DNA of 64,000 nucleotides from an uncultured Elusimicrobiaceae bacterium (GTDB lineage Bacteria; Elusimicrobiota; Elusimicrobia; Elusimicrobiales; UBA9959): positions 318-64,317 of the forward strand of contig CAYQJX010000010.1 of NCBI GenBank assembly GCA_964417965.1, written 5' to 3'. Below, in pieces: positions 4,983-26,927 of this stretch. Position 1 is the stretch's first letter. Every line of letters starts with the position of its first letter. The notes under the pieces were generated by a model that saw only the letters and a list, made by a program, of their open reading frames with translations, was not told where the DNA came from and did no database searches. Both the position numbers and the translations under genes were made by a program.

Positions 4983-4993
4983 TCCCAGCGGAG

Positions 4994-6009: not shown

Positions 6010-7500
6010 CTAAGCCCAGGGCGGTTCTTTGCCGGCAACTTTAATCCAGCTTATCGTAGAAAATTTTTCAGGGGAATGCCCGGTCTCCAGGCAGAGGTCG
6101 GTAAACCCCATCTCCTTGAGCTGTACCGCGATCTCCTCCCCCCTTATGCCGTCGCCCAGGTTGGAATCGATGTAGATGGGGGTGTCCTTGGCCACCCCTC
6201 CGGCCGAGGCCAGGAAATCGGCCGGGGCTGAGAAAACAAGGAGCTCTACGCCGTGGACGCGGGCGGCGGTCTTCCAGTTTATGCGCACCAGCGCGTCGTC
6301 GTCAATAAGCACCGCGGTCTTCGGAGCGGCCTGCGGTACCGCTTCCGGCAGGTCTATCGTCACTTCGGTCCCGGCGCCTGGCCGGGAAGTTATACTGAGG
6401 CTGCCGCCCCAGCCCTCGGCGCAGGAGCGGGCGTGGTAAAGGCCGAGCCCGGTGCCGCCGGCCTTGCCGTGCGTGGCGCCCTTCTGCCCCAGCCGGGAGA
6501 GTATCTCCGGCGGTATGCCCTTCCCGTCGTCGCGCACCTTCAGCGTCACCCTGCCGCCGCCCCGGGACAGGCCCACCGACACGCGGCCGGCGCCGTCCAG
6601 GGCCTCCACGGCGTTATTTACGAGGTTGGACACCAGGCGGCGCAGCTCCGCCGGGTGAACCCTGGCCCTGGCTTCTGCTTCTCCGGAAAACTCTATCACC
6701 AGGCCGGCCCGGGAAGAGTACTGGGCCCGTTTCTCGGCCAGCACCGGAGAGACCAGGGACTTAAGGTCGTGCGCGGAAGCGGCCTTCGCGGCCGGGGCGG
6801 CGGCGCCGGGCGCCCTGTAATTTTCAAGCAGGTCCCTGGCTATTTCGCCGATGCGCCCCAGCGCGCCGCGGGCCAGCTCACGCCTTTCCTCAGGCAGGGC
6901 GGAGAAATCCGCGAGGGAGGAGTCCAGCGCGGCCAGCGGCGACCTGATGTCGTGCGCCACCTGGGCGGCCAGCGCCGAATAGGATTCTTTTATGCGCAGG
7001 TCCAGGAGCAGGGTATAGTCTTTTATCAGCCTGCGCCGCTCCCTCAGCGCCACCGGCAGCGAGAGCAGCGCCAGGAGCAGCCAGGACAAGACGCCCCAGG
7101 CGGCCGGAGTCCAGCGGGGGTAGTAGAACAACAGTTCCCCGGCCGGGACCTTCTTGTCTTCGTCGAAATAAACGCCTACCCGGGAAGAAGCGTAGAGCAT
7201 CCCGGAGGAGCTCTCGGCGCCGGCCGGCACGCTGAACCCTTTCTCCTGCCCAGCGGGCTTCCAGGCCATGCCGGCAAAGTCGCGCGAAATGGAGGAGGGC
7301 ATGGTGGTTATCACGTGGCGCGCGTCCCCGGCCAGCAGCGAGTCGCGGGAAGCGGCGGCCAGCTGCCTGGCCAGCCGGGCCTTGAAGTAACCCGTAAAAA
7401 GCAGCGACAGCGCCAAGGCCGCGACAAAGATCACCGCCTGGAAAAGCAGGAACTTAACGGCGAGCTGGCGCACGGATCTTTTAATTTCAGGGTCCATCAC
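6010..7500 (-). CDS. Membrane hybrid histidine kinase (HisKA-HATPase-REC), copy 1
   Basis: Two TM helices; H-box VAHDIRSPL, N-box NLVNNAVEA, DDGKG and GTGLGL; C-terminal receiver (IDDD...IDS...ETG...GKEPPWA). Confidence 0.9.
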   Translation of the reverse strand: MMDPEIKRSVRQLAVKFLLFQAVIFVAALALSLLFTGYFKARLARQLAAASRDSLLAGDARHVITTMPSSISRDFAGMAWKPAGQEKGFSVPAGAESSSGMLYASSRVGVYFDEDKKVPAGELLFYYPRWTPAAWGVLSWLLLALLSLPVALRERRRLIKDYTLLLDLRIKESYSALAAQVAHDIRSPLAALDSSLADFSALPEERRELARGALGRIGEIARDLLENYRAPGAAAPAAKAASAHDLKSLVSPVLAEKRAQYSSRAGLVIEFSGEAEARARVHPAELRRLVSNLVNNAVEALDGAGRVSVGLSRGGGRVTLKVRDDGKGIPPEILSRLGQKGATHGKAGGTGLGLYHARSCAEGWGGSLSITSRPGAGTEVTIDLPEAVPQAAPKTAVLIDDDALVRINWKTAARVHGVELLVFSAPADFLASAGGVAKDTPIYIDSNLGDGIRGEEIAVQLKEMGFTDLCLETGHSPEKFSTISWIKVAGKEPPWA

Positions 7501-13467: not shown

Positions 13468-14285
13468 TTGTTGTTAACCTCATCGGCGGCTTCCAGCAGC
13501 GCCGTTATGAACGGCTTCATCCTGCAGGCGTTGGCGTCCTCGCTTTTCCTGAAACCGCACATCCGCCACGCGGGGCAAAGGGCGCAGCCCCCGAAGTTCA
13601 GCAGCGGGGCGCGGCGCTTTTCCCTGGCGGACAGGCTGAGCCCCGCGAAGTCCACAGCCTCCGGCTTATCCAACGTTCCCACAAAGTCACCTTTAGCCAG
13701 GGCGGCGCGGGAAACGGCGATATTACCCGCCTCGTCGCAGTGGAAGAAGGTCCCCTCTTTTTCCAGATAAAGCTCGTTGTAATCCGCCTGCTGGTTCTTG
13801 TACTCGGTATAAGCGTAGAGGAAGGGCTCCACCGAAGTGTGGGCCACTTTACCGCAGGAGTCATAAGCCAGCAGGTCTTCCATGGCGTCCCAGTCGGCGT
13901 TGTCCCCGTCCAGGATCAGCCCCGTCTTCACCATCAGCGAGGACAGCACGCGCGCCGCGGTGATATTTTCCGGAGTGGCCGGGAAATAAAAACGCGCCGC
14001 CGAGCTGCGCAGATTCTCAAGGGCCGGGGCACAGTCCAGAAGGCGCCCGGCGCTTTGCAGGCGGAAAACCAGCGGCAGGTCCAGCCATTCTTTTTTCAGC
14101 TCCACCCCGGCAAGGCTGTCGGCGGAGACCTCTATGCAATGCAGCCTGTCGCGGCTTACGGCCGCGGCTATCCTGCCGATCTCCCCGGCGTCCCCGGTGC
14201 GCACGGCGAGGCGGCGGGCGCCCGTTTTAGCGATGACGGCCCCGCTGAAAGGAACCACAAAGATTTGCTTTGTCGTATCTGTCAT
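13455..14285 (-). CDS. Degenerate radical-SAM-like protein: SPASM-type Cys tail but no CxxxCxxC
   Basis: FHCDEAGNI and CALCPAWRMC near the C-terminus; overlaps both flanking rSAM genes (start reset to ATG 14285). Confidence 0.6.
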   Translation of the reverse strand: MTDTTKQIFVVPFSGAVIAKTGARRLAVRTGDAGEIGRIAAAVSRDRLHCIEVSADSLAGVELKKEWLDLPLVFRLQSAGRLLDCAPALENLRSSAARFYFPATPENITAARVLSSLMVKTGLILDGDNADWDAMEDLLAYDSCGKVAHTSVEPFLYAYTEYKNQQADYNELYLEKEGTFFHCDEAGNIAVSRAALAKGDFVGTLDKPEAVDFAGLSLSAREKRRAPLLNFGGCALCPAWRMCGFRKSEDANACRMKPFITALLEAADEVNNKCRQ

Positions 14286-15283
14286 ATTTTGAAAGCGCGT
14301 ACGCCACCCTCCCGGTCTATCTCGCGCAGCACGTGCGCCGCGCAGCCGCCGTCGCATACCCCTTTTTTTCGCCAGGAGCAGCTGTCGCATTTTTCGTAGA
14401 TGCCGCCGGCTTCCTGCCTGATGTTCTTAGTGAACGTCCTGAAGTATTCCATCATGCCGTTGTAATCGTCGAAGTCGTACACCGATTTGCGGTGCGTGCC
14501 GGACAGCGGGAAGCAAGCCCACGCCATCATGTCCGGACCTATGTCCACGGGACCGCCGCAGGTGAATTTATGAACGCCCTTGGTGGCTTTATACAGCTGC
14601 CCCAGCTTTTCGTCGCTGAAAAGGCACATGGGGAACCCGCAGTCCAGCCCCGGGCAGACGTTCTGCTGGTCGAACACCGGCAGGTGGTTCAGCAGTCTGT
14701 CCACGATCCCCTGGATGTCGGGGATGGAGATGAAGGAATTATTCTCCCGCAGGATCGGGTGCGTAAGCCCCAGCCGTATGGAGCGCTTAAGCCCGTAACG
14801 GTTTATGTACTTGAAAAGGAAATCCAAACTGAAGTCTTTGCGGTAGATGTTAAAACCCGGCGTCACATGCGCCCCGAACTCCTCAAGGAACTCCTCCACC
14901 CGTTTAGTTTCGCTTTCCGGGGAGAAGGCCGGGTCGTTAAGGTTGCAGAGGAAGGAAACTTTCCTGTCGGCCTGCGGAACGGTCTTGTAAACCCGGCGCA
15001 GGTCATTTTTCACCTTCTCGGACATGATGCCGCTGCTGAAGACCGTAACGGAAAAATCCCGCTTAAGCGCGTAGGCCAGGAAGTCGGCGAACTGCGGGTG
15101 CAGCGTCGGCTCGCCCCCGAGGAACCTCATTTCGCGGCAGCCGCCCTGCGCGAACAGATCCGCGAGATAGACCAGGTCTTCCCATTTGATCACGTCGCCG
15201 CCGTCGTTCTCACCCATCTGCTTCTTGGCGAAGCAGTACGGGCAGGAACGGACGCATTTTTGTGTAAGCAGTATGTTTGGCAT
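14282..15283 (-). CDS. Radical SAM/SPASM protein
   Basis: CVRSCPYC; FLGGEPTLH; CGGPVDIGPD...AC and CDSC...CDGGC. Confidence 0.88.
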   Translation of the reverse strand: MPNILLTQKCVRSCPYCFAKKQMGENDGGDVIKWEDLVYLADLFAQGGCREMRFLGGEPTLHPQFADFLAYALKRDFSVTVFSSGIMSEKVKNDLRRVYKTVPQADRKVSFLCNLNDPAFSPESETKRVEEFLEEFGAHVTPGFNIYRKDFSLDFLFKYINRYGLKRSIRLGLTHPILRENNSFISIPDIQGIVDRLLNHLPVFDQQNVCPGLDCGFPMCLFSDEKLGQLYKATKGVHKFTCGGPVDIGPDMMAWACFPLSGTHRKSVYDFDDYNGMMEYFRTFTKNIRQEAGGIYEKCDSCSWRKKGVCDGGCAAHVLREIDREGGVRAFKI

Positions 15284-15321
15284 ATTAGGTTCTTCTTTTC
15301 GGCTTTCTTGCCCCGGGCGTC

Positions 15322-15354
15322 AGCCGCGGCTGCGGTAATTCCGCCGCCGCGGCT
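15322..15354 (-). promoter_or_regulatory. GC stem-loop after precursor 1 (no U tract)
   Basis: AGCCGCGGC-T-GCGG / CCGC-C-GCCGCGGCT arms. Confidence 0.55.
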
Positions 15355-15368
15355 TCCCCAGGCTGCAC

Positions 15369-15668
15369 TTAGTCTTTGTACTGCACGTACTGATCATAAT
15401 AGTAGGTGTTCCCGTTACTATAACCAGCGCCGTTCGTATAGGTCCCGCTCCTGTCGCTGTTTTCCGCCGCAGCCGCCTGCAAACCGGTGACAGCAGAAGC
15501 CACATGTCCTATGGTGCTGAACTTGGGCCCCTGTACTGCGGCCGTAGCCGCATGCGCCGCCGGCACGAAAGCCCCGATGAGCTGAAGACCCATGCCCACC
15601 CCTACCGAAGCTTTCGCCATCCGTTTAAGCGCCTCGCGCCGCGAAACCCTTCCGTCTTTAACTTCCAT
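15369..15668 (-). CDS. Putative RiPP precursor 1: Tat-type signal peptide and Tyr/Asn-rich C-terminal core
   Basis: AAGGAGG RBS; SRREALK twin-Arg motif, h-region and AHA cleavage site; core GTYTNGAGYSNGNTYYYDQYVQYKD; first gene of the rSAM operon. Confidence 0.75.
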   Translation of the reverse strand: MEVKDGRVSRREALKRMAKASVGVGMGLQLIGAFVPAAHAATAAVQGPKFSTIGHVASAVTGLQAAAAENSDRSGTYTNGAGYSNGNTYYYDQYVQYKD

Positions 15669-15722
15669 TTTCTCCTCCTTACTGCCTTTTCGGAAGCCGA
15701 TGCCCCCGATCGCATCTCTCGA

Positions 15723-15738
15723 AGCAATTATAATGCCA
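15723..15738 (-). promoter_or_regulatory. Sigma-54 (-24/-12) promoter of precursor 1
   Basis: TGGCATTATAATTGCT on the minus strand, GG-N10-GC spacing. Confidence 0.8.
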
Positions 15739-15790
15739 CCCCTGAGAAACCGCTTAAAGGGCCCTTCCCCTGGGGTTAGGGACGACGGAT

Positions 15791-15826
15791 ATTCTCATTT
15801 AAGACCGCTTATTTTCATTTGAAAAT
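15791..15826. promoter_or_regulatory. Tandem palindromic activator-binding sites (candidate UAS)
   Basis: ATTCTCATTTAAGACC (15791) and ATTTTCATTTGAAAAT (15811), starts 20 bp apart. Confidence 0.65.
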
Positions 15827-15831
15827 GGCAA

Positions 15832-15851
15832 CCGCCGGGGAAGCCCGGCGG
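15832..15851 (-). terminator. Probable terminator hairpin
   Basis: CCGCCGGG-GAAG-CCCGGCGG downstream of the 15873-16400 gene. Confidence 0.45.
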
Positions 15852-15872
15852 CTGCGATAGCGGGAGGTGTTA

Positions 15873-16400
15873 TTATTTAGCCGCTTCGACCGTAACTTCA
15901 ATGCGGTTCTTCGGTTCGTCCAGGATAAGGGTGCTTTTCCCGAGCAGGAGCCGCGTCGCGGCCTGGAAACTCACGAACGCAACCTGTGCGCCCGCCCCTG
16001 GCACAAGGAGAGGTCCCTGCAGTTCGAACTGGGATTCAAGGATAACACAATTCCTGTCCTGCGGATCCGTTAAAGGCTTGAACCTGGCCTTGCTCATATA
16101 GCGTTTCATGTCGTACTTACGCTTACCGTCGACTTCTCCCAGGTCCACATTGGTCTCCCCGCTGGAGGAGAACTCGGCGTCCGCCCTGTCCACAGCCGTC
16201 AGGCTGCCGGAACTCTTCAGGATCTCCGTACTTATTTTGTAGGTTATCCTGTAATTGTCTACGCCGTACCTTACCATCTGTACCGGCCGATTATCCGCGC
16301 CCTCGCCCATTTTCGGACCCTTCTCGGCGGCATTGCCCTGGCCCGCCAAGGCAAGCGCCATCACGCCGAAAAGCGCGGCCACTATCATTCTTTTACCCAT
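15873..16400 (-). CDS. Secreted hypothetical protein
   Basis: Signal peptide MGKRMIVAALFGVMALALAGQGNA after a GGAG RBS; preceded by a sigma-54-type promoter. Confidence 0.65.
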   Translation of the reverse strand: MGKRMIVAALFGVMALALAGQGNAAEKGPKMGEGADNRPVQMVRYGVDNYRITYKISTEILKSSGSLTAVDRADAEFSSSGETNVDLGEVDGKRKYDMKRYMSKARFKPLTDPQDRNCVILESQFELQGPLLVPGAGAQVAFVSFQAATRLLLGKSTLILDEPKNRIEVTVEAAK

Positions 16401-16464
16401 TTTCTTGTCCTCCCGTTTATCAGACCTGACTTTGAAAACAATTTTAACGCTTTGCAAAAGGGGG

Positions 16465-16480
16465 AGCATTTTCCATGCCA
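16465..16480 (-). promoter_or_regulatory. Sigma-54-type promoter
   Basis: TGGCATGGAAAATGCT on the minus strand (GG-N10-GC). Confidence 0.6.
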
Positions 16481-16509
16481 GCAGGATAGCCCGGCAATGC
16501 TATTTCCAT

Positions 16510-16594
16510 ATGGAAATAAAAAAAGCGGGCTTACTGCCCGCTTTCGTGGTTTCTGGGTAGCTCCGGGGGGTCAGGCCCAGGGCGGTTCTTTGCC
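16510..16594 (-). repeat. Imperfect direct repeat, copy A: kinase 3' end plus terminator
   Basis: Aligns with 22141-22221; includes the hairpin AAAGCGGGC-TTACT-GCCCGCTTT. Confidence 0.8.
16571..16594 (-). pseudogene. Orphan 3' remnant of a hybrid kinase gene (GKEPPWA-stop)
   Basis: 24 bp identical to 22198-22221; no kinase ORF upstream of it. Confidence 0.7.
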
Positions 16595-16661
16595 CGCGCC
16601 TTTGTGCCCGGTGAAGTCACCAACCTGCATGATATTTACGGGCTTGCGGCCCGTCAGTGCC

Positions 16662-18440
16662 CTAGCTCATATATTTGCTGCTGGATTCCCAGAGCTTGCG
16701 GTAGTACGGCAGTCCGGCCAACAGCTCCTCATGGCTTCCCTCTCCCGCGATGTTGCCATTGCGCAGGACAACGACACGCTCGGCTAATTTTATCGCGCCA
16801 AGCCGGTGCGTGATGATGACGGCCGTGTGCCCCTTCTTAAGTTCCATGAAGTCCTGATATATGCGGTCTTCCTCAAACGGATCTATCGCGGCCGTGGGTT
16901 CGTCCAGCACGATCAGTTGATGTCCCCTGTAATACGCCCTGGCGATGGACAGGCGCTGCCATTCACCGCGGGATAATTCGGTACCATCGAATTCTTTACT
17001 GAGCAATGTCTCCAGACCCCGGTCCAGCCGTTTAAGGTCGACGTGGAAATCCGCGGCAGCCAGCGCGGATCGCACCCGCTTGTCGGAACGGTCCTGCTCA
17101 TTCGAGAACGCGCTGATCCTGACGTTGTCCCCCAGCGTGAGCTGGTACCGCTGGAAATCCTGAAAAACGCACGACACGTTACCGTAAAGGTCGTCTTTCA
17201 CGATATCTTTAAGAGCGATGCCGCCCGCGAGGACCTCGCCTTCCCCGGGTGCGTACAAGCCGAGCAGCAGCTTGGACAGCGTGGTTTTTCCGGACCCGTT
17301 CTCCCCTACGACGGCAACGGTCTCGCCAGCACGGAGGATCAACGAGATGCGGCTTAAAGCCGGCGTGGATGCGCCCGGGTACGTAAAACCGACCTCTTTC
17401 ATGACAAGGTCTTTCCTATCTCCGCAGCGCAGTTCACCGTACTTCTGCTCCTGCATTTCGAAAAAGGAGAAATACTTTTCCAGTCGGCCGGCGCTGACGG
17501 AAAGCTCTCCGAGCCTGCTGTCGAAAACTTCCTCCATCATCGCGAACATCTCCATGGTAGCCGCCAGGATGGCCGAGAACGCACCTATGGAGATGCTGCC
17601 CTTGATCAGCAGCGAGATCAGGAACACCAGGATGCTCATATACCCGGCCAGCGAGAACGCCTTGGCGGCGGTCTCCACGCCCTGGCTTTTCAGGTCGGCC
17701 CTGTATTTAAGCTGCTGGATCTTCTTGAAGGTCAGGTCGTAAAGCAAGAGGAAGAAGCCACTGGCGCCCAAAGCCCGCGTCTCCTTCAGGTATGTCCGGG
17801 ATACCAGGCATTCCTTGTAGTGCTCTTCTTTCCGGCGCAGCGCGACGGACTGGTCTTCAAGCCGGGTGTAGTAGCGGGAGCGCAGGAGATGTGAGGCCAG
17901 GACCGGGACGAAAACAAGGGGCAGTATCAACGGCAGCAGCGGCTGTACGCGGTACAGGTAAGCTCCCATGAAACCGAAATAGGGGATATAGAGGCACAGG
18001 ATATCCATGAGTACATGGACCAATTTGCGCACGTCGGCTGCTCCCCGGTAGGCTTGGCTGATCCGGTCCAGCACGTCCGGATCCTCGAACCCGGCTGCCG
18101 GCAGCCTGGCGGCTTTCTGGTTTAAGAGCTCGGTCATTTTCTGACCGCTCTTGCCGGCATAGAATTCACCGTAAAAGTTGGCGACACCGTCCACAGCTTC
18201 GTCCAGCACCTTTATAACGGCGAACACACAGAGGTACCACAGCACCGACGAGAATGGGACGCGGCCTGCGGCCAGCGCGACGACCTGGTCGAAGAACTTC
18301 TGTAGCCAAACCGTGGTAACGACCAGCATGACGGCGTCCAGGAACGTGAACGCGTACTCTATGACGAAATGCCGGGGCGAGACGCGGAACACCTGCGGGA
18401 TAGCCCTGAGGGCCTGAAGCAGGAAATGCGGCAGGGTCAT
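16662..18440 (-). CDS. ABC exporter, TMD-NBD subunit B
   Basis: GENGSGKTT Walker A, LSRGEWQR signature, LDEPT Walker B; start at 18440 overlaps the upstream stop. Confidence 0.88.
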   Translation of the reverse strand: MTLPHFLLQALRAIPQVFRVSPRHFVIEYAFTFLDAVMLVVTTVWLQKFFDQVVALAAGRVPFSSVLWYLCVFAVIKVLDEAVDGVANFYGEFYAGKSGQKMTELLNQKAARLPAAGFEDPDVLDRISQAYRGAADVRKLVHVLMDILCLYIPYFGFMGAYLYRVQPLLPLILPLVFVPVLASHLLRSRYYTRLEDQSVALRRKEEHYKECLVSRTYLKETRALGASGFFLLLYDLTFKKIQQLKYRADLKSQGVETAAKAFSLAGYMSILVFLISLLIKGSISIGAFSAILAATMEMFAMMEEVFDSRLGELSVSAGRLEKYFSFFEMQEQKYGELRCGDRKDLVMKEVGFTYPGASTPALSRISLILRAGETVAVVGENGSGKTTLSKLLLGLYAPGEGEVLAGGIALKDIVKDDLYGNVSCVFQDFQRYQLTLGDNVRISAFSNEQDRSDKRVRSALAAADFHVDLKRLDRGLETLLSKEFDGTELSRGEWQRLSIARAYYRGHQLIVLDEPTAAIDPFEEDRIYQDFMELKKGHTAVIITHRLGAIKLAERVVVLRNGNIAGEGSHEELLAGLPYYRKLWESSSKYMS

Positions 18441-20236
18441 GCGGGCACCTCCCGGTGCTCCTTGTACCATTTTGCCTGTGCCGTGAACATCTCCGCGTAA
18501 TAACCGTTCCGGGCAAGAAGGATGTCGTGCGGGCCTTGTTCGATGATCCGGCCTTCGTTCATGACTATTATTTCGTCGGCCAGCCGTGCCGCCGCCAGGC
18601 GGTGCGTGATGTATAAAGTGGTCATCCGCCCGTTAAGGCCGGACCTTCTGACGGTCTCGTAGAGGTTATTCTCGGCTAGCACATCAAGGGCCGCCGCCGG
18701 TTCGTCGAACACAAAAAGCCTGGCTTCCCGGCCGAAACTCCTGGCCAGTGCCAGCAGTTGCCATTGCCCGCCGGACAGGTCCGTGCTGTCCGGCTCCAGT
18801 TTACCCAAAGCGGTATCGGCGCCTTTTGGGAACGAACGGACTTTCACGGCCAGGCCCATCTGCTCCAGCAGCGCGTCTATCTTTCCCGCGGGAAGAGCGG
18901 GATTTCCCAATCTCAGTTGTTCCGTTACCGTCAGTTGATACTTGGCGTATTCCTGGTAAAGCACCGAGAAGTACGCTTTCCTTTCCGCGGCGGTGAAGGA
19001 GTTTATATCCCTGTTGTTCAGCAGTATCCTGCCAGTATAGTTCCGGTAGAGGCCCGTCAGCAACTTTATCACGGTCGATTTCCCGCAACCGTTCCTGCCC
19101 ACGAAGGCATACTGCTTGCCGGGAAGGATGGTAAGCGAAAAATCGCGGAGAATCTCCCTTTCGGACCCGGGATACTTAAAGCTAACGCGGTCGAAAACCA
19201 AGCTTTCCAGCGGCATGCCGCAAATGCGCTCATCCGGGGCCAGGTCGCTGCCGGGCACCTCCGAAAGCCGCTGCGCGCACTCCAAGTCTTCCAGGTACAG
19301 CCGGTTGCCGGTGTAGTCTTTGAGCAGTCCCGAAAGTTGCCAGGACAAGGTATGGATAAGCGCCGAAAGGGAGATCACCAGGCTTATAAAGACGCCGGCC
19401 GTCATCCTGTTCTCCTTTACGAGCAGCAGCAAAAGCAGGGAAACAGCTACGAGCAGCAGCGTGAAGACCGCGCTTACGCTCTTTGAGCGGAGAAAGATCT
19501 TCCTGTCCGCCTTAAAATCCAGCTCTATTCTCCGGTCCGTCTCCTCGCCCCAGAATTTGCCTATCCTGTCGCCAAAGCCGAACAGCGTCCTCTCCGAGGC
19601 CGCTTCCCTGGAAGACAGCAGGGACCTGAAATACTTGGCCTTCCTCGCGTGGGGAGCTATCTGCGCACCGGCTTCGTACGCCTCGGTCCCGCTCTTCTTG
19701 GCGATCATGACCACCGGAAAGGCCAGCAGCAGGCACGCGACGGCGGCCGGAACGGAGGAGTGGCCTATAATGGCGATAAGCCCCAGGACGCTGAGGATAA
19801 TCGCGGCCAGGTCCAGCAGATTAGTGAAACCGCGCTCTATCGAGCCGGGAAGGTCTTCGCCTACGCGCTCAAGCAGGTCGTAGGTCTCGTCGTTCTCGAT
19901 ATGCTCGTAGGAAAGACGGTTGAGCTTTGTGACAAGCTGCGGTTTCAGCTTGTTTTCAAGACGCATGTTGAAGCTGAGCTCCGCGAGCCGGGCCGCGGCC
20001 TGGAGCAGATAGCCGGCCATTAATACGGCAAAAAGCCCCGCCAGCGGAAAAAAGGCGGCGGACAGGCTTTGGGCGGAGATAACTCCGGGCAATACGTCAA
20101 GCAGGCCGGCGATGGCCAGCGTCTGCAGCACAGGCAGGGCGGCCTGCGCGGTGCGGAGGAGCAGCAGGCCCGCGGTTAACGGCCTGCTGCAATGGAAAGA
20201 TATGGCGATGTACCTTAGGTTCTTGAGAGTATTCAT
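18437..20236 (-). CDS. ABC exporter, TMD-NBD subunit A
   Basis: GRNGCGKST, LSGGQWQ, FDEPAA; N-terminal TM domain with no C39 peptidase domain. Confidence 0.88.
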   Translation of the reverse strand: MNTLKNLRYIAISFHCSRPLTAGLLLLRTAQAALPVLQTLAIAGLLDVLPGVISAQSLSAAFFPLAGLFAVLMAGYLLQAAARLAELSFNMRLENKLKPQLVTKLNRLSYEHIENDETYDLLERVGEDLPGSIERGFTNLLDLAAIILSVLGLIAIIGHSSVPAAVACLLLAFPVVMIAKKSGTEAYEAGAQIAPHARKAKYFRSLLSSREAASERTLFGFGDRIGKFWGEETDRRIELDFKADRKIFLRSKSVSAVFTLLLVAVSLLLLLLVKENRMTAGVFISLVISLSALIHTLSWQLSGLLKDYTGNRLYLEDLECAQRLSEVPGSDLAPDERICGMPLESLVFDRVSFKYPGSEREILRDFSLTILPGKQYAFVGRNGCGKSTVIKLLTGLYRNYTGRILLNNRDINSFTAAERKAYFSVLYQEYAKYQLTVTEQLRLGNPALPAGKIDALLEQMGLAVKVRSFPKGADTALGKLEPDSTDLSGGQWQLLALARSFGREARLFVFDEPAAALDVLAENNLYETVRRSGLNGRMTTLYITHRLAAARLADEIIVMNEGRIIEQGPHDILLARNGYYAEMFTAQAKWYKEHREVPA

Positions 20237-20287
20237 GTTGCTTTCGCCGCGGCCGTATTACGGCCATTTAACCGCTGCAGCGGCAGA

Positions 20288-21370
20288 TTAAAGGCAGCGG
20301 TCGGCCCGTGTTTTAAACTTGGTCCCTTCTCCGGTAGTCCCGCCTTTTCTCATGACCCGGTATTCCGATTCGGCCGTTCTTTTAGAATCGGAAGAGCAGG
20401 CGAGCGGCGAACCGTCCTCCAGCAACGCGTGCCCGGGACAATGGACGCACTTTTCCTTCAGGCCGCAGGTGGAACACTGCTGCAGATCGCTTTTCTTCAA
20501 CGACAGCAGATATTTCCGCTCGGGGGAATCATACCAGATGGTCTTCAGATCGCTCGAGAAGACATCCCCCAGCTTATGGCGGAAACTGATGCAGGGGAAA
20601 ACCTCACCGCTTGCATCTATGAAGATGGTGTTCTTGAGCGACGGGCAGATGCTCTCGTCCTGCCTCACTTTCTCCAGCAGCGCTTCGGCCTCCGGATTGC
20701 TGCTGGCCAGTATCAGGGCAATGGCGTCATCCATCCCGTCATCGTCCATGCGCAGGTCCCGCACTGACGTGTCGCCGTTCATTTTTGAGGAAATGGTAGG
20801 ACAGGGATTGAAATCGAAACCGTTTTCGGCACAGAATCCGCCCACTTCGCGGAAATCATGCCGATTGGTCTTAAGTATCGGAGTTTTTATCTCTACGGCG
20901 ATCCCATGCTTCTTCAGCAAAGCCACATTATCAAGGGCCTTCCGCAGAGACCCCTTGACTCCGGTAATGGCCTCGTGGACCTCATGGTTCAGGGAAAAGA
21001 TGGTCGTACCGAATGAGGAAATGTGAAGGTCCGCGAGCTCTTTGGCTATGCTCTCATTAATAAGCGTCGCGTTGCTCAGCAGATTGACGCTGAACCCCAG
21101 TGACCGGGCGTCCCTTACAGTGCCCATGATGTTCTTTCTTAGGAAGATCTCGCCTCCGGTCAGATTAAGGTACAACGCCCCAAGTTCCCTCAATTCCCGC
21201 AGAAGTCTCGCGACCACTGCGTCATCAAGCCCTTCAGAAACGCGTTCGGGAATATAGCAATGGGTGCATTTCAGGCTGCACCTGGTCAGAAGCTCAATGG
21301 TAACATTGAGCGGGATATCGGCTTTCTGGGTTATTGTCTGCAGCGAAACGGCCTTGATATTTTCTTTCAT
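20288..21370 (-). CDS. Radical SAM/SPASM peptide maturase (PqqE-like)
   Basis: CSLKCTHC; LTGGE; CPSL...GEVFPC...CSTCGLKEKCVHCPG...C. Confidence 0.9.
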   Translation of the reverse strand: MKENIKAVSLQTITQKADIPLNVTIELLTRCSLKCTHCYIPERVSEGLDDAVVARLLRELRELGALYLNLTGGEIFLRKNIMGTVRDARSLGFSVNLLSNATLINESIAKELADLHISSFGTTIFSLNHEVHEAITGVKGSLRKALDNVALLKKHGIAVEIKTPILKTNRHDFREVGGFCAENGFDFNPCPTISSKMNGDTSVRDLRMDDDGMDDAIALILASSNPEAEALLEKVRQDESICPSLKNTIFIDASGEVFPCISFRHKLGDVFSSDLKTIWYDSPERKYLLSLKKSDLQQCSTCGLKEKCVHCPGHALLEDGSPLACSSDSKRTAESEYRVMRKGGTTGEGTKFKTRADRCL

Positions 21371-21642
21371 TTTGCCAGCTCCCCGGAAGCAGCGATGAAC
21401 CCCTTCTCGACCAGGAGTTCCGTAAGTCCGGTCATATCAGCATCCAGCACTCTTTCCTCCACGTCATAGCTTTTTAGCAGCTCGGCCCTGATGGCCTCAT
21501 AGTCATGGAGCTTCCCGATAAGCAGCCAGAAATCTTTCCCGACATTGTCGAGGGCGTAGATGAACGAGTTCCGCTCATCGCGGAGATACAGCGTGTCCAG
21601 GATCACCTGCCACGCCACGTTAAACGTATATGTCAAACGCAT
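21367..21642 (-). CDS. PqqD/RRE peptide chaperone
   Basis: 91 aa; IYALDNVGKDFWLLI...ELLKSYDVEERVLDADMTGLTELLVEKGFI; ATGA overlap with the rSAM gene. Confidence 0.85.
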   Translation of the reverse strand: MRLTYTFNVAWQVILDTLYLRDERNSFIYALDNVGKDFWLLIGKLHDYEAIRAELLKSYDVEERVLDADMTGLTELLVEKGFIAASGELAK

Positions 21643-21808
21643 CCGGCTGTCCCCTTTTAGCGAAAGTGTAAGGTAAAAAAGCCTGAAACCCACCTGCTTC
21701 GAATAAATCCCGGAAAAGATCTAACCCGAACGTATTATATTCTTAAATGGCCGGACTGGTCCAGAACATGCCGGAGGCAGCCGGGAACCGAAACCGCAAT
21801 ATAGGCGC

Positions 21809-21855
21809 CAGGACAACGGCAGCGGACACTAACTACTCGTCCCTGCCGTTGCCTG
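21809..21855 (-). promoter_or_regulatory. Stem-loop after precursor 2
   Basis: CAGG-A-CAACGGCAG-C-GGAC pairs with GTCC-CTGCCGTTG-CCTG. Confidence 0.6.
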
Positions 21856-21867
21856 ACCCGGGACCGT

Positions 21868-21981
21868 TTAGAGCACCTCGCCGGATTTGCCGTTGCAGGC
21901 ATTGCCGTGACCGCAGCGCGTGGCGGTTTTGGCGCAATTGGAAACAACGGTCAGAACGGGCGTCGAGTAAGTTTTTTTCAT
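21868..21981 (-). CDS. Putative RiPP precursor 2 (37 aa, 3 Cys)
   Basis: AGGAG RBS; MKKTYSTPVLTVVSNCAKTATRCGHGNACNGKSGEVL with a YxxPxL RRE-binding leader motif; directly upstream of the PqqD and rSAM genes. Confidence 0.82.
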   Translation of the reverse strand: MKKTYSTPVLTVVSNCAKTATRCGHGNACNGKSGEVL

Positions 21982-22040
21982 GATAATCTCCTGGTAATTT
22001 TGTTCGTTTTCTGCGTTACAAGTTGTTACGCCCAATACGG

Positions 22041-22056
22041 AGCAATTTATATGCCA
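22041..22056 (-). promoter_or_regulatory. Sigma-54 promoter of precursor 2
   Basis: TGGCATATAAATTGCT on the minus strand. Confidence 0.8.
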
Positions 22057-22111
22057 GGGCGCCTTGTTACAGAAGCGGCCAAGTGTTTTGCTTACGGATG
22101 CCGCAAAATAT

Positions 22112-22147
22112 ATTCTCATTTGAAAATATTGTTTTCAAATATGAATA
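22112..22147. promoter_or_regulatory. Palindromic activator site (candidate UAS) plus a weaker second site
   Basis: ATTCTCATTTGAAAAT at 22112-22127, identical to 28617-28632; degenerate GTTTTCAAATATGAAT from 22131. Confidence 0.65.
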
Positions 22148-22221
22148 GAAAAGCAGGGCAATGGCCCGCTTTCCTAGTTTTGGATAGCTCCGGGAGGTCA
22201 GGCCCAGGGCGGTTCTTTGCC
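22141..22221 (-). repeat. Imperfect direct repeat, copy B: kinase 2 3' end plus terminator
   Basis: Aligns with 16510-16594. Confidence 0.8.
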
Positions 22222-23880
22222 GGTTACTTTAAGCCAGGGGAGATGAGAGAATTTTTCGGGGCCGTGGCCGGTGGCCATGGTGAGGTCGGTAAAACCTTTC
22301 GCATGCAGGGCCTGGGCCGTGTCTTCGCCCTTAACGTCGCCGCCCAGCTCGGAGTCTATATAGATTGGCGTATCTTTGGGCAGGGCTTCAGTGCCGGCGA
22401 TAAGTTCTTCCGGGGTTTTATGCGCCTTGAACTCCACGCCTGCGGCTTTGGCGGCCATCCGCCAGTTCATGTGCACCAACAGGTCGTCGTCCAGCAGCAC
22501 CGCGCGCGCAGGCGCGGTTTTAGCCGCGGCCGCCGGCAGTTCCAGCGTAACGGCGGTGCCTTTGCCCGGCTCGGATTCCATCCTGAAGCTGCCGCCCCAG
22601 GCCTCCACCGTTTTGCGGGCGTGGTAAACGCCCAGGCCGGTGCCGCCGGCCTTGCCGTGCGTTTCGCCCTTCTGCCCCAGCCTGGCCAGGATCTCCGGCT
22701 GTATGCCTTTGCCATTGTCCTTTACGGTCAGCAGCACTTTGTGGTCCAGGGCGGACAGGGAGACCGAGACGGTACCCGGCCCGCTGAAGGCTTCTACCGA
22801 GTTATTGATAAGGTTTGAGACCAGCCGCTGGAATTCGGTGGGCTCCACTGAAGCTTTGATCTCCGCAGCGCCGGCGGCGAAATCGATACTGACGCCGGGC
22901 TTATCCTTGTGCTGCAGCCGCTTCTCCGCGACCACCTGCTCCACAAGACCGCCAAGAGCGAGCACCGCGGTTTTGGGTTTAGCCGGCCCGGAGGACGGCG
23001 CGCGGTAACGGGTTAGCAGTTCGTCGGCTATGCCCTGCATGCGCGCCACCGCCCCGTCTATCATGTTGCGCTGCTCCTGCGGGAGCTCCAGCCCTTTAGC
23101 CGCCGCATCCAGCGCCGCCAGCGGCGACCGTATATCGTGCGCCACCTGCGCGGCCAGGTCTGAGGTGGCCTTGGAGATAGCCAGCTCGCTCTCCAGCCGC
23201 GCCGCCTTGCCGAGCGCGTCGCTCATGCGCCCCGTCATCTGCGCGAAAGGCGTGCCTATGGTGCCGGACGGCAGGCCGGCTATATGTTTTTTTATGGACT
23301 CCCGGATGACCTCGCTGTGCCGGGAGTCGGCCACGGCGTTGATCTCGTTGACCGAGCGCTCTATAGCGAGCAGCGTCTTCATTGCACCCAGATTGGAGAT
23401 AATCAGCAGCCCCAAGAAAAAGAAGACCACGGTAATGAACAGCACGTAGTTCTGGCCGAACACCGCGGCGTTTACGTCCAGCAGGTCTATCACGTACTCA
23501 AGCCGGCCCAGCTCAGCGCCGTTGGAGACGAACGGCACGTTATGCGTTATCTGCGCGCGCGGCCGGTCGTAAAGATTGCCTACTATCGCCTCTTTGAAGA
23601 TCCACCTGCTGCCCTCGAACACTACCGGGTGGAAAGCAATGCGTTTTATGTTTTCGTTCTTTATGCGCCACATTATGCGCTGCGTCTCAAAAACGTCGCC
23701 GTCCAGGAAGGCCTTCTCAAAGTAGGCCGCGTTCTGCCGCATGGCGGTCAGCAACTTGTCATCAGCCACCCGCACAGCGGAAAACGCCGAGAAAGCCTGC
23801 CAAAAAGCGACGAAGACCAGCACCGACACAGCATAGTGCCGCCAGTTATAAGCGAATATCCTGAGAAATATTTTTACCAT
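22198..23880 (-). CDS. Membrane hybrid histidine kinase (HisKA-HATPase-REC), copy 2
   Basis: VAHDIRSPL, NLINNSVEA, DNGKG, GTGLG; receiver LDDD...IDS...ATG...GKEPPWA; C-terminal half closely similar to copy 1. Confidence 0.9.
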   Translation of the reverse strand: MVKIFLRIFAYNWRHYAVSVLVFVAFWQAFSAFSAVRVADDKLLTAMRQNAAYFEKAFLDGDVFETQRIMWRIKNENIKRIAFHPVVFEGSRWIFKEAIVGNLYDRPRAQITHNVPFVSNGAELGRLEYVIDLLDVNAAVFGQNYVLFITVVFFFLGLLIISNLGAMKTLLAIERSVNEINAVADSRHSEVIRESIKKHIAGLPSGTIGTPFAQMTGRMSDALGKAARLESELAISKATSDLAAQVAHDIRSPLAALDAAAKGLELPQEQRNMIDGAVARMQGIADELLTRYRAPSSGPAKPKTAVLALGGLVEQVVAEKRLQHKDKPGVSIDFAAGAAEIKASVEPTEFQRLVSNLINNSVEAFSGPGTVSVSLSALDHKVLLTVKDNGKGIQPEILARLGQKGETHGKAGGTGLGVYHARKTVEAWGGSFRMESEPGKGTAVTLELPAAAAKTAPARAVLLDDDLLVHMNWRMAAKAAGVEFKAHKTPEELIAGTEALPKDTPIYIDSELGGDVKGEDTAQALHAKGFTDLTMATGHGPEKFSHLPWLKVTGKEPPWA

Positions 23881-25292
23881 CTAAAATCAGCCACCTCTGG
23901 ATATTCCGAGAACCCCCGACCGACATCTAAATTTTTAATATTTTGTGGATAATAAAGCTTTGTACTGCTTTGATACAACGGCAAGACAACAGCCTCCCGC
24001 TGCACCCCGCTCGCCAACGCCATCGCTGCCTTCACCTTATCGGCCCTACCGTCCAGGGAGAGTAATTCCTTGTACATTTTCCTGAGATCGGCAGGAACAC
24101 TATCTATCACAGCAGCCTCACCCAGATAGTACTCAAAAAACGGCGCATATTCCGGCCTGACCGTATCAGATACAATCACGATCAGCCCATAAGACTTCAA
24201 CTTAGAGCGATTATGCAATTCGCTTACCAGATCCTTTGGCACGTAGTTCTTAATAATTAGTTTGAGCCCAGTACGATCGAAGAGTCGTTTAGAGAACTCT
24301 CTAAGCTGCACAGCATTGTTTTGGTATAGATTCGCTAAAACAATTTGTTTGTTCTTTAAATAGTGCTTTTTCTCATTAGTGCATGCCGTACTACTTCTGC
24401 CCGCCTCCCCCCCTGGAATGCCTAAAGGCAGCAGCCACTTCACATCCAGTAACCCCTTCCTTTCCGGAAGAAAAGCTTCCCTAAATTCTCCCGCGTCGAC
24501 ACAATTATATACAGCATCGCGAAAACGGCTATCTGGATTATTGATGGCTAATCCCACGACACGCAGTTCGATGTTGAAAAATCCGGCAAACTCTTTCTGG
24601 ATCCATTCCGGCTGCTGGAATGTGGACAGTTTGTTGAAGTCACAGATACTCCTATCGTTAAGCCGCACGTCCCCCGGGCCGGAATACTCATGAAAGATTA
24701 CTTTGTTGTATCCATTTCGGACCGGCTTTTTTCTTTCCAGTGTGATTTGCTTACTCTTCACGCTTTTCACGAAAAAGGGGCCCAGCCCGGATTCGTATCC
24801 GGTTTCAACTTTTATGCTGGGCGCATTATCAAATTTTGATAAAAAGTCCAGATACCCATGCTTCGGTTTCTGGAACCTTATAGAAACACAGCCTTCGTTT
24901 TTGTTTATAGTGGCCCCTGGCTCATATTTCTTTGTGACTTCGGAAATATATGAGAGGAAATACTGGAAAGAAAATCCGTTTTTCGCGTCAAAGCGCAGGG
25001 TCGTGTCGGGACAAAACAGGTACTCAGTAGATAAGTTGTTGCGTCCCCAGCGTTTTAATATGCGTGACGCATAGTTCTGGCCGTCATCTTGGCGAAAAAC
25101 CGGTTCGTGCGTCTGCCGGAGGACATAGAAGGTGGAGGTTTCAGATTCGTTCTTAACGGACACTTCCGCAGGCAAGGCTCCGATCAGCACCTTCCAAACA
25201 TCCTTCTCAGAGGACGTGCCGGCAGCGCACTCCCCGGCAAAGATCGGACAAAAGAGTACCCCTAATATCCAGGCCGCGTGATTTGTAGACAT
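23874..25292 (-). CDS. Family-5-like solute-binding protein, copy 2
   Basis: Signal peptide; HEPVFR...ASRIL, GLGPFFV and VLPLYQ segments; overlaps the kinase start; AT-rich. Confidence 0.65.
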   Translation of the reverse strand: MSTNHAAWILGVLFCPIFAGECAAGTSSEKDVWKVLIGALPAEVSVKNESETSTFYVLRQTHEPVFRQDDGQNYASRILKRWGRNNLSTEYLFCPDTTLRFDAKNGFSFQYFLSYISEVTKKYEPGATINKNEGCVSIRFQKPKHGYLDFLSKFDNAPSIKVETGYESGLGPFFVKSVKSKQITLERKKPVRNGYNKVIFHEYSGPGDVRLNDRSICDFNKLSTFQQPEWIQKEFAGFFNIELRVVGLAINNPDSRFRDAVYNCVDAGEFREAFLPERKGLLDVKWLLPLGIPGGEAGRSSTACTNEKKHYLKNKQIVLANLYQNNAVQLREFSKRLFDRTGLKLIIKNYVPKDLVSELHNRSKLKSYGLIVIVSDTVRPEYAPFFEYYLGEAAVIDSVPADLRKMYKELLSLDGRADKVKAAMALASGVQREAVVLPLYQSSTKLYYPQNIKNLDVGRGFSEYPEVADFRW

Positions 25293-26876: not shown

Positions 26877-26888
26877 TTTCCACAAAAA

Positions 26889-26927
26889 TTAACGCCCGAG
26901 TTACCTTTGGTAAAGCCCGGGCGTTAA
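26889..26927 (-). promoter_or_regulatory. Stem-loop after candidate precursor 3
   Basis: TTAACGCCCG...CGGGCGTTAA outer stem with inner TTACC/GGTAA. Confidence 0.55.

Follow-up and report, generated by a model that had tools for sequence, protein, structure and literature searches.

Cluster 2, a 5.6-kb gene cluster of an uncultured Elusimicrobia genome that is of the peptide-antibiotic type judging by its gene content, forms a discrete unit that some closely related Elusimicrobia possess and others lack. Because the same locus is found in other environmental samples without the cluster and joined exactly at the repeat, this is a genuine cassette that can be swapped, and ordinary recombination accounts for its gain or loss. 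Cassettes of this kind were probably docked behind a conserved kinase gene by homologous and illegitimate recombination and later exchanged or lost by homologous recombination, and the form with the empty site may be the ancestral one, the cluster then having been inserted, or a derived one, the cluster then having been deleted between the repeats. The elements of the locus within the window, i.e., the whole 64,000-nucleotide stretch of DNA that was analysed, are as follows.

6010..7500, minus strand: HK1, a paralogous kinase gene whose last 20 nt (6014-6033) are as in HK2 and whose downstream DNA differs
15873..16400, minus strand: p175, a 175-aa secreted-type protein matching no Pfam family, the first gene past the left repeat
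16521..16545, minus strand: intrinsic-terminator hairpin and U run of the left copy
16558..16594, minus strand: left copy of the 37-nt core, GGCAAAGAACCGCCCTGGGCCTGACC[C/T]CCCGGAGCTA, identical to 22185-22221 at 36/37 positions
16571..16621, minus strand: orphan histidine-kinase 3' end of about 17 codons, ...DFTGHKGAGKEPPWA-stop, located by translation and an nhmmer profile
16645..22197, minus strand: cluster 2, delimited as a discrete unit by homology breaks in relatives
16662..18440, minus strand: ABC592, an ABC transporter (ATPase and membrane part; Pfam)
18437..20236, minus strand: ABC599, an ABC transporter (Pfam)
20288..21370, minus strand: radical SAM/SPASM maturase (Pfam)
21367..21642, minus strand: PqqD-like (RRE-type) peptide-binding protein (Pfam)
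21868..21981, minus strand: pep37, a 37-aa Cys-containing precursor (3 Cys), MKKTYSTPVLTVVSNCAKTATRCGHGNACNGKSGEVL
22146..22176, minus strand: terminator hairpin 3' of HK2 (right copy)
22185..22221, minus strand: right copy of the core, the true HK2 end plus 13 nt
22198..23880, minus strand: HK2, a 560-aa histidine kinase (HisKA and HATPase_c) with a C-terminal receiver-like domain, ending in GKEPPWA

The imperfect direct repeats reported in the initial annotation (16510-16594 and 22141-22221) were found again, and their homology is concentrated in the 37-nt core (36/37). Repeat family D12 aligns 16551-16614 with 22178-22241 at 83% identity over 64 nt and a spacing of 5627. The 24 identical bp said to encode GKEPPWA-stop lie in the core (24/24), and the terminator hairpins, with their U runs, lie at 16545..16521 and 22176..22146. 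Segment by segment, the left and right copies agree at 24/24 positions in the core, against 14/27 upstream of it, 14/16 directly past the stop codon and 39/53 in the terminator, the 36/37 core being placed between flanks of 52% and 74% identity (Fisher p = 2e-4 and 1e-3). This unevenness, which was counted in favour of the preferred explanation, would be the signature of exchange inside the repeat, and both repeats are apparently copies of one junction module, composed of the last sensor-kinase codons and a terminator. The 20-mer GGCAAAGAACCGCCCTGGGC, read as GKEPPWA-stop on the minus strand, has three copies in the window (6014, 16575 and 22202), all on the minus strand, while shuffles give an expectation of 0.00; the third copy (6014-6033) is the end of the paralogous kinase HK1, and the DNA downstream of HK1 is different. 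The arrangement of repeats and cluster is not an assembly artefact, since an independent Logan contig of 23,166 nt spans 9000-24000 and matches it throughout, without differences.

The left copy has no kinase attached, as already claimed, and holds only the 17-codon orphan tail (16571-16621), which starts 41 nt past the ABC592 stop codon. The reading frame that ends at 16571 starts directly past the ABC-transporter gene (16662-18440) and is interrupted by a stop codon (...I-stop-ARALTGRKPVNIMQVGDFTGHKGAGKEPPWA-stop). When a DNA profile of 61 intact kinase tails was searched with nhmmer, the orphan homology extended over 16575-16621, corresponding to profile positions 154-200. The orphan tail is presumably not a gene, and its terminator presumably insulates the p175 promoter; the same left-copy terminator now appears to end the cluster 2 operon.

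The initial annotation had proposed to look for an empty site in related genomes and had staked its reading on presence/absence variation at these junctions, which is clearly present, with the switch lying inside the repeat. A locus without cluster 2 was found in four other samples, L109 and runs X6, X7 and X10 (the runs belonging to two studies), in short, low-depth (2-7x) Logan contigs and 30-nt ends past the junctions, none of which spans the whole kinase. The order at the empty site is HK2 coding sequence, core, left-type terminator, sigma-54 promoter and p175. The L109 contig (1498 nt) reads ...TDLTMATGHGPEKFSHLPWLKVTGKEPPWA-stop, left-type terminator, TGGCATGAAAAATGC, p175 (86% identical at the protein level), p99 and rSAM333; its nt 1-128 correspond to window 22290-22164 and its nt 47-1498 to window 16617-15145, and its kinase coding part is identical to HK2 at 87/90 positions and to the orphan at just 50/90. 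Runs X6, X7 and X10 have one contig each with the joint 16552->22185, skipping 5632; on 16380-16720 these contigs follow the left-copy sequence to 16594, and the sequence after that, GGTTACTTTAAGCCAGGGGAGATGGGAGAA, matches window 22222-22251 at 29/30 positions. In the empty-site contigs the switch from left-copy to HK2 sequence lies at the upstream edge of the core, 16594, and the absent segment is one repeat period, 5627 nt, e.g. 16595-22221. The indel is exactly one period because the empty-site HK2 runs via the core straight into the left-type terminator, the promoter and p175. Sequencing depth is about 0 over 16600-21975 in X5, X6, X7 and X10, whereas p99 and p175 have coverage, some of it at 99-100% identity.

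The window and the empty-site contigs are about 85-90% identical over 16118-16594, with many small indels, and 99-100% identical in p99. The divergence of the former against the near-identity of the latter implies that the two alleles are old, and the drop in identity suggests a recombination tract boundary inside p175. The alleles were probably exchanged whole, via crossovers in the flanking genes, and if so the kinase tail may be just the last conserved base before the variable part, and not an active site.

Other configurations past the HK2 stop codon were found as well. HK2 is followed by toastB in L105/L106 (22197 joined to 9870); an HK2-type tail is followed by SBP1 in L057 (22204 joined to 9056), with the same joint in run X3; and HK2, terminator, activator sites and promoter are followed by p99 and cluster 1 in L003. 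Additionally, a cluster 2 of about 90% identity in run X3 departs from the window at 16645 and enters the HK2-toastB spacer of L105 (23/25 identical). In relatives, the homology with the window stops at 22197/22204, where HK2 has its stop codon; run X3 shows a break at 16645 as well. HK2 itself is 70-78% identical across many Elusimicrobia, and the 3 kb upstream of its orthologues form one homology group (27/28), whereas the 3 kb downstream fall into 21 unrelated groups among 26 orthologous loci; activator sites and a sigma-54 motif occur within 600 nt past the HK2 stop codon in 13 of the 26. The profile search also recovered three further orphan tails in other Elusimicrobia, in L021 (20 nt), L020 (44 nt) and L036 (about 70 nt), each directly ahead of a terminator, activator sites, a sigma-54 promoter and a precursor peptide, L020 having the architecture of the window with unrelated cassettes. 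In run X3, where the contig extends 80 nt, an orphan is absent from the 30 nt visible past the junction, so not every insertion need leave one. Taken together, the four empty-site samples and the four other configurations past the HK2 stop codon support the earlier proposal that cassettes are inserted or swapped by recombination at the kinase tail.

The second option of the initial annotation, that a third SBP-kinase module was deleted and the left copy is what remains of it, agrees less well with the data, and we consider it unlikely. Such a module would have stood between the ABC genes and p175 and lost all but its last 17 or so codons, the repeats being paralogous gene ends with no part in cassette movement. 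Tandem rSAM-SBP-kinase modules or second kinases 3-8 kb apart are indeed seen in L010, L012, L022, L029 and L032; truncated kinases do occur, since L110 has ORFs of 136 and 157 aa that correspond to nothing but the C-terminal receiver-like part of such a kinase, and one of the two immediately precedes cluster 1; and the L036 orphan is frameshifted, as expected of a decaying pseudogene. Nevertheless, over the 27 nt that precede the core, the orphan matches HK2 at 14/27 positions and the orthologous tail of L109 at 17/27 (about 52-63%), while the adjacent non-coding DNA is about 86% identical; the orphan therefore does not derive from a recent truncation of the kinase found at that place in relatives. 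Moreover, an SBP-kinase module between cluster 2 and p175 is not seen in any relative, run X3 has cluster 2 directly against the toastB spacer, and the kinase tail of the empty site agrees with HK2 itself at 87/90 positions.

A further question is whether exchange at the kinase tail involves a recombinase of its own. The window holds recA and, beside it, a single candidate.

48650-49537: XerC/D-type tyrosine recombinase of 295 aa, beside recA and 26 kb away, the sole Phage_integrase match

The earlier remark that no integrase is nearby holds for 4-33 kb, where a Pfam scan of ORFs found no integrase, transposase or resolvase, and cluster 2 itself (16645-22197) carries no integrase or excisionase gene by Pfam. 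It is highly improbable, in our judgement, that the 20-37-nt core is the attachment site for a dedicated recombinase encoded elsewhere, in an integron- or island-like manner, with cassettes that are cut out as circles and integrate again at any kinase tail. Homology does break at or a few nt from the HK2 stop codon in several independent comparisons, and plain homologous recombination also predicts breaks at the end of a conserved gene. The orphans of the window, L020 and L021 all have exactly GGCAAAGAACCGCCCTGGGC, a codon variant present in few of about 58 intact tails, and integrative elements typically show a direct repeat built from the 3' end of the target gene; on the other hand, third-position variants (GAG/GAA and CCN) are free in intact tails, the orphans differ in length (20, 44, 47 and about 70 nt), the core has lost 1 nt in L036, and run X3 lacks a duplicated tail in the visible 30 nt. 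The lack of mobility genes at 4-33 kb and the Xer type and 26-kb distance of the only tyrosine recombinase also speak against such a system.

The promoters that accompany the junctions, and their likely regulators, are listed below.

15723..15826, minus strand: third regulatory module, ahead of p99 and cluster 1, without a kinase tail (activator-type sites 15791-15826; promoter motif TGGCATTATAATTGCT, 15723-15738)
16465..16480, minus strand: sigma-54-type promoter motif TGGCATGGAAAATGCT, ahead of p175, conserved in L109
22041..22056, minus strand: sigma-54-type promoter motif TGGCATATAAATTGCT, ahead of pep37, from a motif search
22112..22146, minus strand: palindromic upstream activator-type sites (TTTCAAATGAGAAT ...), repeat family D10
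27413-28465, minus strand: 350-aa protein with Sigma54_DBD as its sole domain
28654-30000, plus strand: sigma-54 activator with a receiver domain

The sigma-54-type motif matches the window three times, where 0.25 matches are expected, and the three matches stand ahead of pep37, p175 and p99. The activator-type sites at 22112..22146 recur ahead of p99 and ahead of the activator gene itself (28617-28630). The 350-aa Sigma54_DBD protein and the sigma-54 activator probably regulate these promoters. The kinase-tail sequence might have been kept for a cis-acting role, as part of a 3'-UTR structure or as a binding site, the repeat then reflecting selection for that function and not past recombination. 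All four orphans (4/4) hold the same position relative to the terminator, activator sites and sigma-54 promoter, and in the window the core is 24/24 identical and the upstream flank is not. Equivalent promoter modules, however, do without a tail upstream of p99 (15723-15826) and in L112, the core is frameshifted in L036, and folding gives the terminator hairpin only, with no conserved structure involving the core (z-scores about -2), and this is the least probable of the readings.

As for the cargo, Pfam assigns PF05402, PF04055 with PF13186, and PF00005 twice to cluster 2, which combines a short precursor, a PqqD-like RRE protein, a radical SAM enzyme with SPASM and an exporter, as in rSAM/SPASM RiPP clusters. 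A homologue of pep37 (59% identical) stands ahead of ABC genes in L094. Relatives of cluster 2 with 54-69% protein identity are found in digester, fermentation and sediment metagenomes without kinase tails, one of them with a sigma-70 promoter; cluster 2 is thus self-contained elsewhere, a point also counted for the preferred explanation. By its Cys-containing precursor, PqqD-like protein, rSAM/SPASM enzyme and ABC transporters it resembles the sactipeptide/ranthipeptide type, with a putative peptide modification, but unlike those clusters it has a sigma-54 promoter and enhancer site and is linked to SBP-kinase modules. A literature search (Elusimicrobia, radical SAM, precursor peptide) returned no match, and we know of no description of sigma-54/enhancer control and SBP-kinase linkage of rSAM RiPP clusters.

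The locus can be compared with several known systems. In the sequential displacement arrays of Rhs/CdiA orphan C-terminal modules and Vibrio cholerae T6SS effector-immunity genes, a conserved upstream gene is the anchor, incoming modules push the resident one downstream, and displaced modules retain a short 3'-end fragment of the conserved gene, the proposed route being homology-facilitated illegitimate recombination followed by ordinary homologous exchange (PMC3150448; PMC5361080). Like these arrays, the present locus has no recombinase and a content that differs among close relatives; a conserved upstream gene lies beside a hypervariable downstream region, a 3'-end fragment precedes the displaced module (window 16575-16621, L020, L021 and L036), and whole-module differences include the full gene joined to the downstream part of the orphan. 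However, instead of a toxin and immunity gene fused to the conserved gene, the cargo consists of separate operons with their own promoters, so the locus functions in the manner of such an array without belonging to the family. In place of toxin tips with immunity genes it carries whole sigma-54-driven peptide-maturation operons, a signalling kinase serves as anchor without its product being fused to the cargo, and the orphan is non-coding debris plus a terminator, with no re-fusion into a new protein.

In Neisseria minimal mobile elements, variable cassettes between conserved flanking genes are exchanged by transformation and homologous recombination (PMC3787668, PMC1797815). The locus shares with them alternative contents between the same flanks (HK2; p175/p99, toastB or SBP1-HK1), the absence of mobility genes in the element and an apparent exchange of whole alleles among near-identical backgrounds, but it has a duplicated flanking-gene fragment, which is not usual in these elements, and natural transformation is not on record for these uncultured Elusimicrobia. 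With integrons and integrative islands it shares fixed docking behind a conserved gene, a cassette array and direct repeats of the end of the target gene. Unlike in integrons, there is no adjacent IntI-type recombinase with attI (Pfam, ORFs 4-33 kb), the cassettes are not promoterless, being several kb long and each having a sigma-54 motif, and the repeat is a gene fragment with a plain terminator hairpin in place of a folded attC-type site; unlike in islands, no integrase or excisionase gene is carried in 16645-22197, and the repeat varies in length and decays.

By analogy, the array would have originated by sequential displacement. Incoming DNA, made up of a kinase 3' part and a cassette, would have been anchored by homology in the conserved kinase gene, and at its far end an illegitimate join may have formed within the resident kinase tail or shortly before it. 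The resident tail would thereby be shifted one position downstream as an orphan, together with its terminator, its promoter and the cassette behind them. Later, RecA-type homologous recombination would be able to use the near-identical 37-nt core and the conserved genes of the two flanks (HK2; p175/p99 or toastB/SBP1-HK1) to delete, re-insert or swap the cassette between strains, and a dedicated recombinase would not be needed. The mechanism is one already known, and what is new is its setting.

The window is metagenomic DNA from an uncultured Elusimicrobia bacterium and was recovered a second time in ENA (ERZ27284381 k139_737406) and in a Logan contig of 23 kb. From about 5 to 28.5 kb every gene lies on the minus strand. 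Open reading frames, Pfam scans and called genes give the following map of this region, which ends with a divergent activator gene.

4994-5902, minus: toastA, a toastrack protein
6010-7500, minus: HK1, a kinase
7497-9047, minus: SBP1, a binding protein
9057-9857, minus: toastB, a toastrack protein
9956-15668, minus: cluster 1 (TPR protein, DUF3738, GT9, rSAM/SPASM of 369 aa, p276, rSAM of 333 aa, p99)
15873-16400, minus: p175
16510-16621, minus: left repeat
16662-18440, minus: ABC592
18437-20236, minus: ABC599
20288-21370, minus: rSAM/SPASM
21367-21642, minus: PqqD-like protein
21868-21981, minus: pep37
22141-22221, minus: right repeat
22198-23880, minus: HK2, a kinase
23874-25292, minus: SBP2
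25262-25996, minus: p244
25998-26846, minus: rSAM (282 aa)
26963-27175, minus: p70
27413-28465, minus: protein with a sigma-54 DNA-binding domain only
28654-30000, plus: sigma-54 activator

The homologues of HK2 bear Elusimicrobia names. The toastrack genes after HK1 and before SBP1 are paralogues that share 74% of positions across 300 nt (4994-5293 and 9057-9356, family D1). Beyond this region, two adjacent plus-strand frames of 1054 and 971 aa (34554-37718 and 37741-40656; GC3 0.83-0.87) match no Pfam family, and their strong positive AT skew (0.27-0.42) and internal CTGGAGAAGGAA-type repeats (families D4, D8, D15 and D20) indicate that they probably encode repetitive coiled-coil-like proteins.

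Cluster 2, the peptide cluster between the two repeats, is flanked by a duplicated kinase-gene 3' end (family D12: 64 nt, 83% identity, spacing 5627). The 20-mer GGCAAAGAACCGCCCTGGGC occurs three times in the window and 0 times in shuffles, and an independent contig is identical, so that chance and artefact are ruled out. The right copy is the genuine end of HK2, while the left one closes a stop-interrupted frame that opens just past the ABC592 stop, and 16575-16621 is recognised as kinase-tail DNA by a profile of 61 intact kinase tails; terminator hairpins lie 3' of both. The initial annotation was thus correct in describing repeats with hairpins and a left copy without a kinase, and its statement that no integrase is nearby also holds: there is no recombinase gene near cluster 2, and the only one found, of Xer type, is 26 kb away, where recA immediately adjoins a 295-aa XerC/D-type tyrosine recombinase (48650-50626, minus). 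Identity between the left and right copies is 14/27 before the core, 24/24 in the core, 14/16 past the stop and 39/53 in the terminator. A core of 36/37 identical positions between flanks of 52% and 74% is the signature that diverged copies would be expected to show after a crossover or a patch of conversion between them.

An allele without cluster 2 was found through p175, which has only four protein homologues. One of these, 58% identical, has unrelated neighbours and no kinase beside it. Another, 86% identical, lies on a contig of 1498 nt (L109) that opens with 30 intact in-frame kinase codons, TDLTMATGHGPEKFSHLPWLKVTGKEPPWA*, identical to HK2 at 87 of 90 nt; then come the left-type terminator, TGGCATGAAAAATGC, p175, p99 and the first part of the 333-aa rSAM gene. 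By BLAST, its nucleotides 1-128 match 22290-22164 of the window and 47-1498 match 16617-15145, which places the switch within the repeat. Ten further sequencing runs (X5-X14) carrying part of this stretch came up when runs were searched with 15145-16620. In three of them, from two studies (X6, X7 and X10), contigs carry the joint 16552->22185, skipping 5632 nt, and on 16380-16720 they follow the left copy up to 16594 and then read GGTTACTTTAAGCCAGGGGAGATGGGAGAA, which is HK2 coding sequence (22222-22251, 29/30). Depth across 16600-21975 is about zero in these runs and in X5 although p99 and p175 are covered. The empty-site contigs are short and of low depth, none holds the whole kinase, and 30 nt of each loose end are readable. 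Cluster 2 is a discrete indel with the two kinase-tail copies as its ends, and its presence at these junctions varies among relatives, which supports the cassette interpretation of the initial annotation. The excision joint was not found in X1, the sample of the window itself, among assembled contigs, which do not reveal rare forms.

Some pieces from the empty-site runs reach 99-100% identity with the window (X6 15486-15704, 0 differences; X7 15155-15561, 2 differences). Across 16118-16594, however, identity drops to about 85-90% and small indels are numerous. Alleles that carry cluster 2 and alleles that lack it are therefore old and diverged near the junction, in otherwise near-identical backgrounds, a pattern to be expected if homologous recombination swaps whole alleles, with crossovers inside p175 and in HK2.

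An HK2-homologue alignment scan of the genome collection gave 78 loci, onto which the window proteins were mapped by tblastn. The unit p70-rSAM-(p244)-SBP-HK2 is conserved in these loci, and the 3 kb upstream of full-length HK2 orthologues fall into one homology group in 27 of 28 cases, whereas the 3 kb downstream, compared at 26 loci, split into 21 groups. In half of the loci the first 600 nt past the HK2 stop contain activator sites and a sigma-54 motif. What follows the kinase in close relatives is listed below.

L105/L106 (HK2 88% identical in nucleotides): toastB behind the HK2 stop; the match to the window breaks at 22197 and resumes at 9870
L057 (final 947 nt of HK2 91.7% identical): SBP1 behind the stop; 22204 is joined to 9056, a joint that recurs in run X3
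L003: terminator, activator sites, promoter, p99 and cluster 1 behind the HK2 stop
Run X3: cluster 2, about 90% identical, with the right junction as in the window; the contig departs at 16645, 17 nt past the ABC592 stop

The next 25 nt of the X3 contig match the L105 HK2-toastB spacer at 23 positions, and the order in the X3 strain is therefore HK2, cluster 2, toastB. Cluster 1 is mobile too, being found behind HK2 (L003), a 706-aa protein with no Pfam family recorded (L111), a receiver-only frame (L110) and an M20 peptidase (L112-L114). The kinase stop codon is a recurrent edge of a hypervariable region, and in relatives no fewer than 21 different contents occupy the docking position behind this conserved sensor kinase.

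In L112-L114, the first from the window's own study, cluster 1 (p99-like gene to TPR protein) directly follows the peptidase gene, inverted relative to toastrack-HK1-SBP1, with the CGGCACAAAAATTGCT motif and without kinase tail or activator site. L110 has two frames of 136 and 157 aa (4890-5300 and 6850-7323) that comprise only a C-terminal receiver-like domain with the KEPPW-tail end, each preceding activator-type sites, with cluster 1 directly downstream of the second. They could be kinases that have been truncated, or regulators that genuinely consist of one domain. With these frames, orphan shortness was abandoned as a sign of tail-specific breakage.

Recombination within the kinase genes is also suggested. 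The L057 kinase (8949-9895, aligned with 23150-22204) matches HK2, at 91.7% identity, only between the H-box and the stop, and its N-terminal half and upstream genes are unrelated to those of the window. Because this break coincides with a 50-nt block, 90% identical, shared by HK1 and HK2 (6923-6972 and 23108-23157; family D19), paralogous kinases may recombine at the H-box. HK2 was not seen to be a GC3 mosaic, with values of 0.66-0.85 throughout the gene and a drop at the SBP2 border. From SBP2 to p70 (SBP2, p244, rSAM282 and p70; 23874-27175) GC3 is 0.50-0.56, against 0.77 in the adjacent HK2 and 0.88-0.90 in core genes, and among relatives SBP2 is only 36-44% identical, against 70-78% for HK2. 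It looks as if the p70 precursor, its rSAM enzyme and the binding protein co-diversify fast before a conserved kinase, in a pherotype-like signal/receptor arrangement.

Kinase tails without kinases, of which the left copy (16571-16621, minus) is one, were found by profile and peptide-pattern searches in three further loci.

L020: 44 nt, PWLKVTGKEPPWA*, past an ABC-2 permease gene
L021: 20 nt
L036: about 70 nt; a deletion removes 1 nt of the core

Behind each of them come a terminator, activator sites, a sigma-54 motif and the gene of a small precursor. L020 reproduces the architecture of the window with unrelated genes: the cassette next to HK2 encodes two rSAM enzymes along with an ABC transporter, and the orphan separates it from a second one, which encodes a 30-aa peptide, an rSAM enzyme, an MFS transporter and a toastrack protein. 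The precursors behind orphan tails are diverse (L036 2217-2384; L021 9432-9542 and 9567-9677; L020 17962-18054) and include one with three FTSGFNRAPEL repeats, two tandem MNNILELQK...DCQNGGGN peptides and a 30-aa Cys-containing peptide. DNA-level functional constraint on the core was first hinted at by three orphans sharing one codon variant; GAG and the deletion in the L036 orphan weakened this reading, as did the intact tails, which vary freely at third positions.

The strict sigma-54 motif TGGCAYN5WTGCW has three matches in 64 kb, against 0.25 expected, all located by motif search.

22041-22056, minus: before pep37
16465-16480, minus: before p175
15723-15738, minus: before p99

Palindromic TTTCAAATGARAAT sites lie upstream of the pep37 promoter, the p99 promoter and the activator gene. 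With these sites and promoters around the repeats, the right repeat is the first part of a junction module made of kinase tail, terminator, activator sites and sigma-54 promoter, of which the left copy retains tail, terminator, a degenerate palindrome and the promoter. Since the same TTTCAAATGAGAAT site (28617-28630) precedes the activator gene, this gene may be autoregulated. Its divergent neighbour, of 350 aa, has the sigma-54 DNA-binding domain only and is not a full RpoN; the receiver-domain activator and this protein are kept as a pair beside these loci in many relatives. The regulatory roles proposed for both, and the nature of the peptide product, are read from domains and motifs only. 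In L105, the 225 nt upstream of p70 (27185-27409) are duplicated downstream of toastB (12298-12522), before two small frames of 66 and 68 aa, and promoter regions thus duplicate independently of kinase tails.

Relatives of cluster 2 in other habitats are without kinase tails, one of them with a sigma-70 promoter, and those from a scan of JGI metagenomes, only 59-69% identical and also without tails, gave no junction information. One cluster-2-like cassette (L094 1200-1760), on a sediment contig of 46% GC, encodes a homologue of pep37, MKKIYSTPILTLVSKKNLIRIQCGHGAGCNGKDRKMY, whose gene follows a sigma-70 promoter of textbook form, with an IS91-type transposase fragment recognised by eye upstream.

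Regarding the origin of the orphans, a cassette would come to lie behind the kinase by anchoring one end in the kinase gene through homology, and its other end would be joined illegitimately in or before the resident tail, leaving the latter as an orphan; later gain, loss and exchange would proceed by homologous recombination in the core or in flanking genes. The alternative raised by the initial annotation, that the left copy is the deletion scar of a third SBP-kinase module, is disfavoured, since the orphan's own 27 nt upstream of the core are unlike the kinase tail at the orthologous position in relatives, and neither the relatives nor X3 have a module there. A site-specific recombination system is likewise disfavoured: no recombinase gene lies nearby, the orphans vary and decay, and X3 shows no duplicate in the 30 nt of the loose end that are readable. 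The favoured route, illegitimate capture followed by homologous exchange, forms orphans in the manner of 'sequential displacement', a model put forward for T6SS effector-immunity arrays and for Rhs/CDI orphans (PMC5361080; PMC3150448), and its exchange step resembles the minimal mobile elements of Neisseria (PMC3787668). As a mechanism, cassette arrays that are driven by recombination and carry orphan gene ends are known, and the recombination itself is ordinary; what is new is the setting, in which a conserved sensor kinase of Elusimicrobia has sigma-54-controlled peptide-maturation operons docked behind it. A search of the literature for Elusimicrobia together with radical SAM and precursor peptide gave no hits.

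These results describe a peptide cluster of an uncultured phylum as a live presence/absence polymorphism with ends defined to the base from public environmental data alone, and they extend the orphan-fragment logic of polymorphic toxin loci to whole regulated operons. They also offer a mining route for new RiPP-type clusters, behind HK2-type kinase tails and sigma-54 promoters, and point to a putative peptide-sensing circuit of precursor, rSAM enzyme, binding protein, kinase and sigma-54 activator. A bolder proposal, which we hold only tentatively and consider rather doubtful, is that kinase 3' end, terminator, enhancer sites and sigma-54 promoter form a recombinase-free docking and expression platform that takes up foreign peptide-biosynthesis cassettes immediately behind a conserved sensor kinase, wiring them into one signal-controlled sigma-54 regulon and stacking them in arrays, with orphan tails as homology handles. 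If true, this would be a functional analogue of the integron built on homologous recombination alone, capturing cassettes that are run by sigma-70 promoters in other phyla, and the orphan tails would permit their reshuffling between strains.
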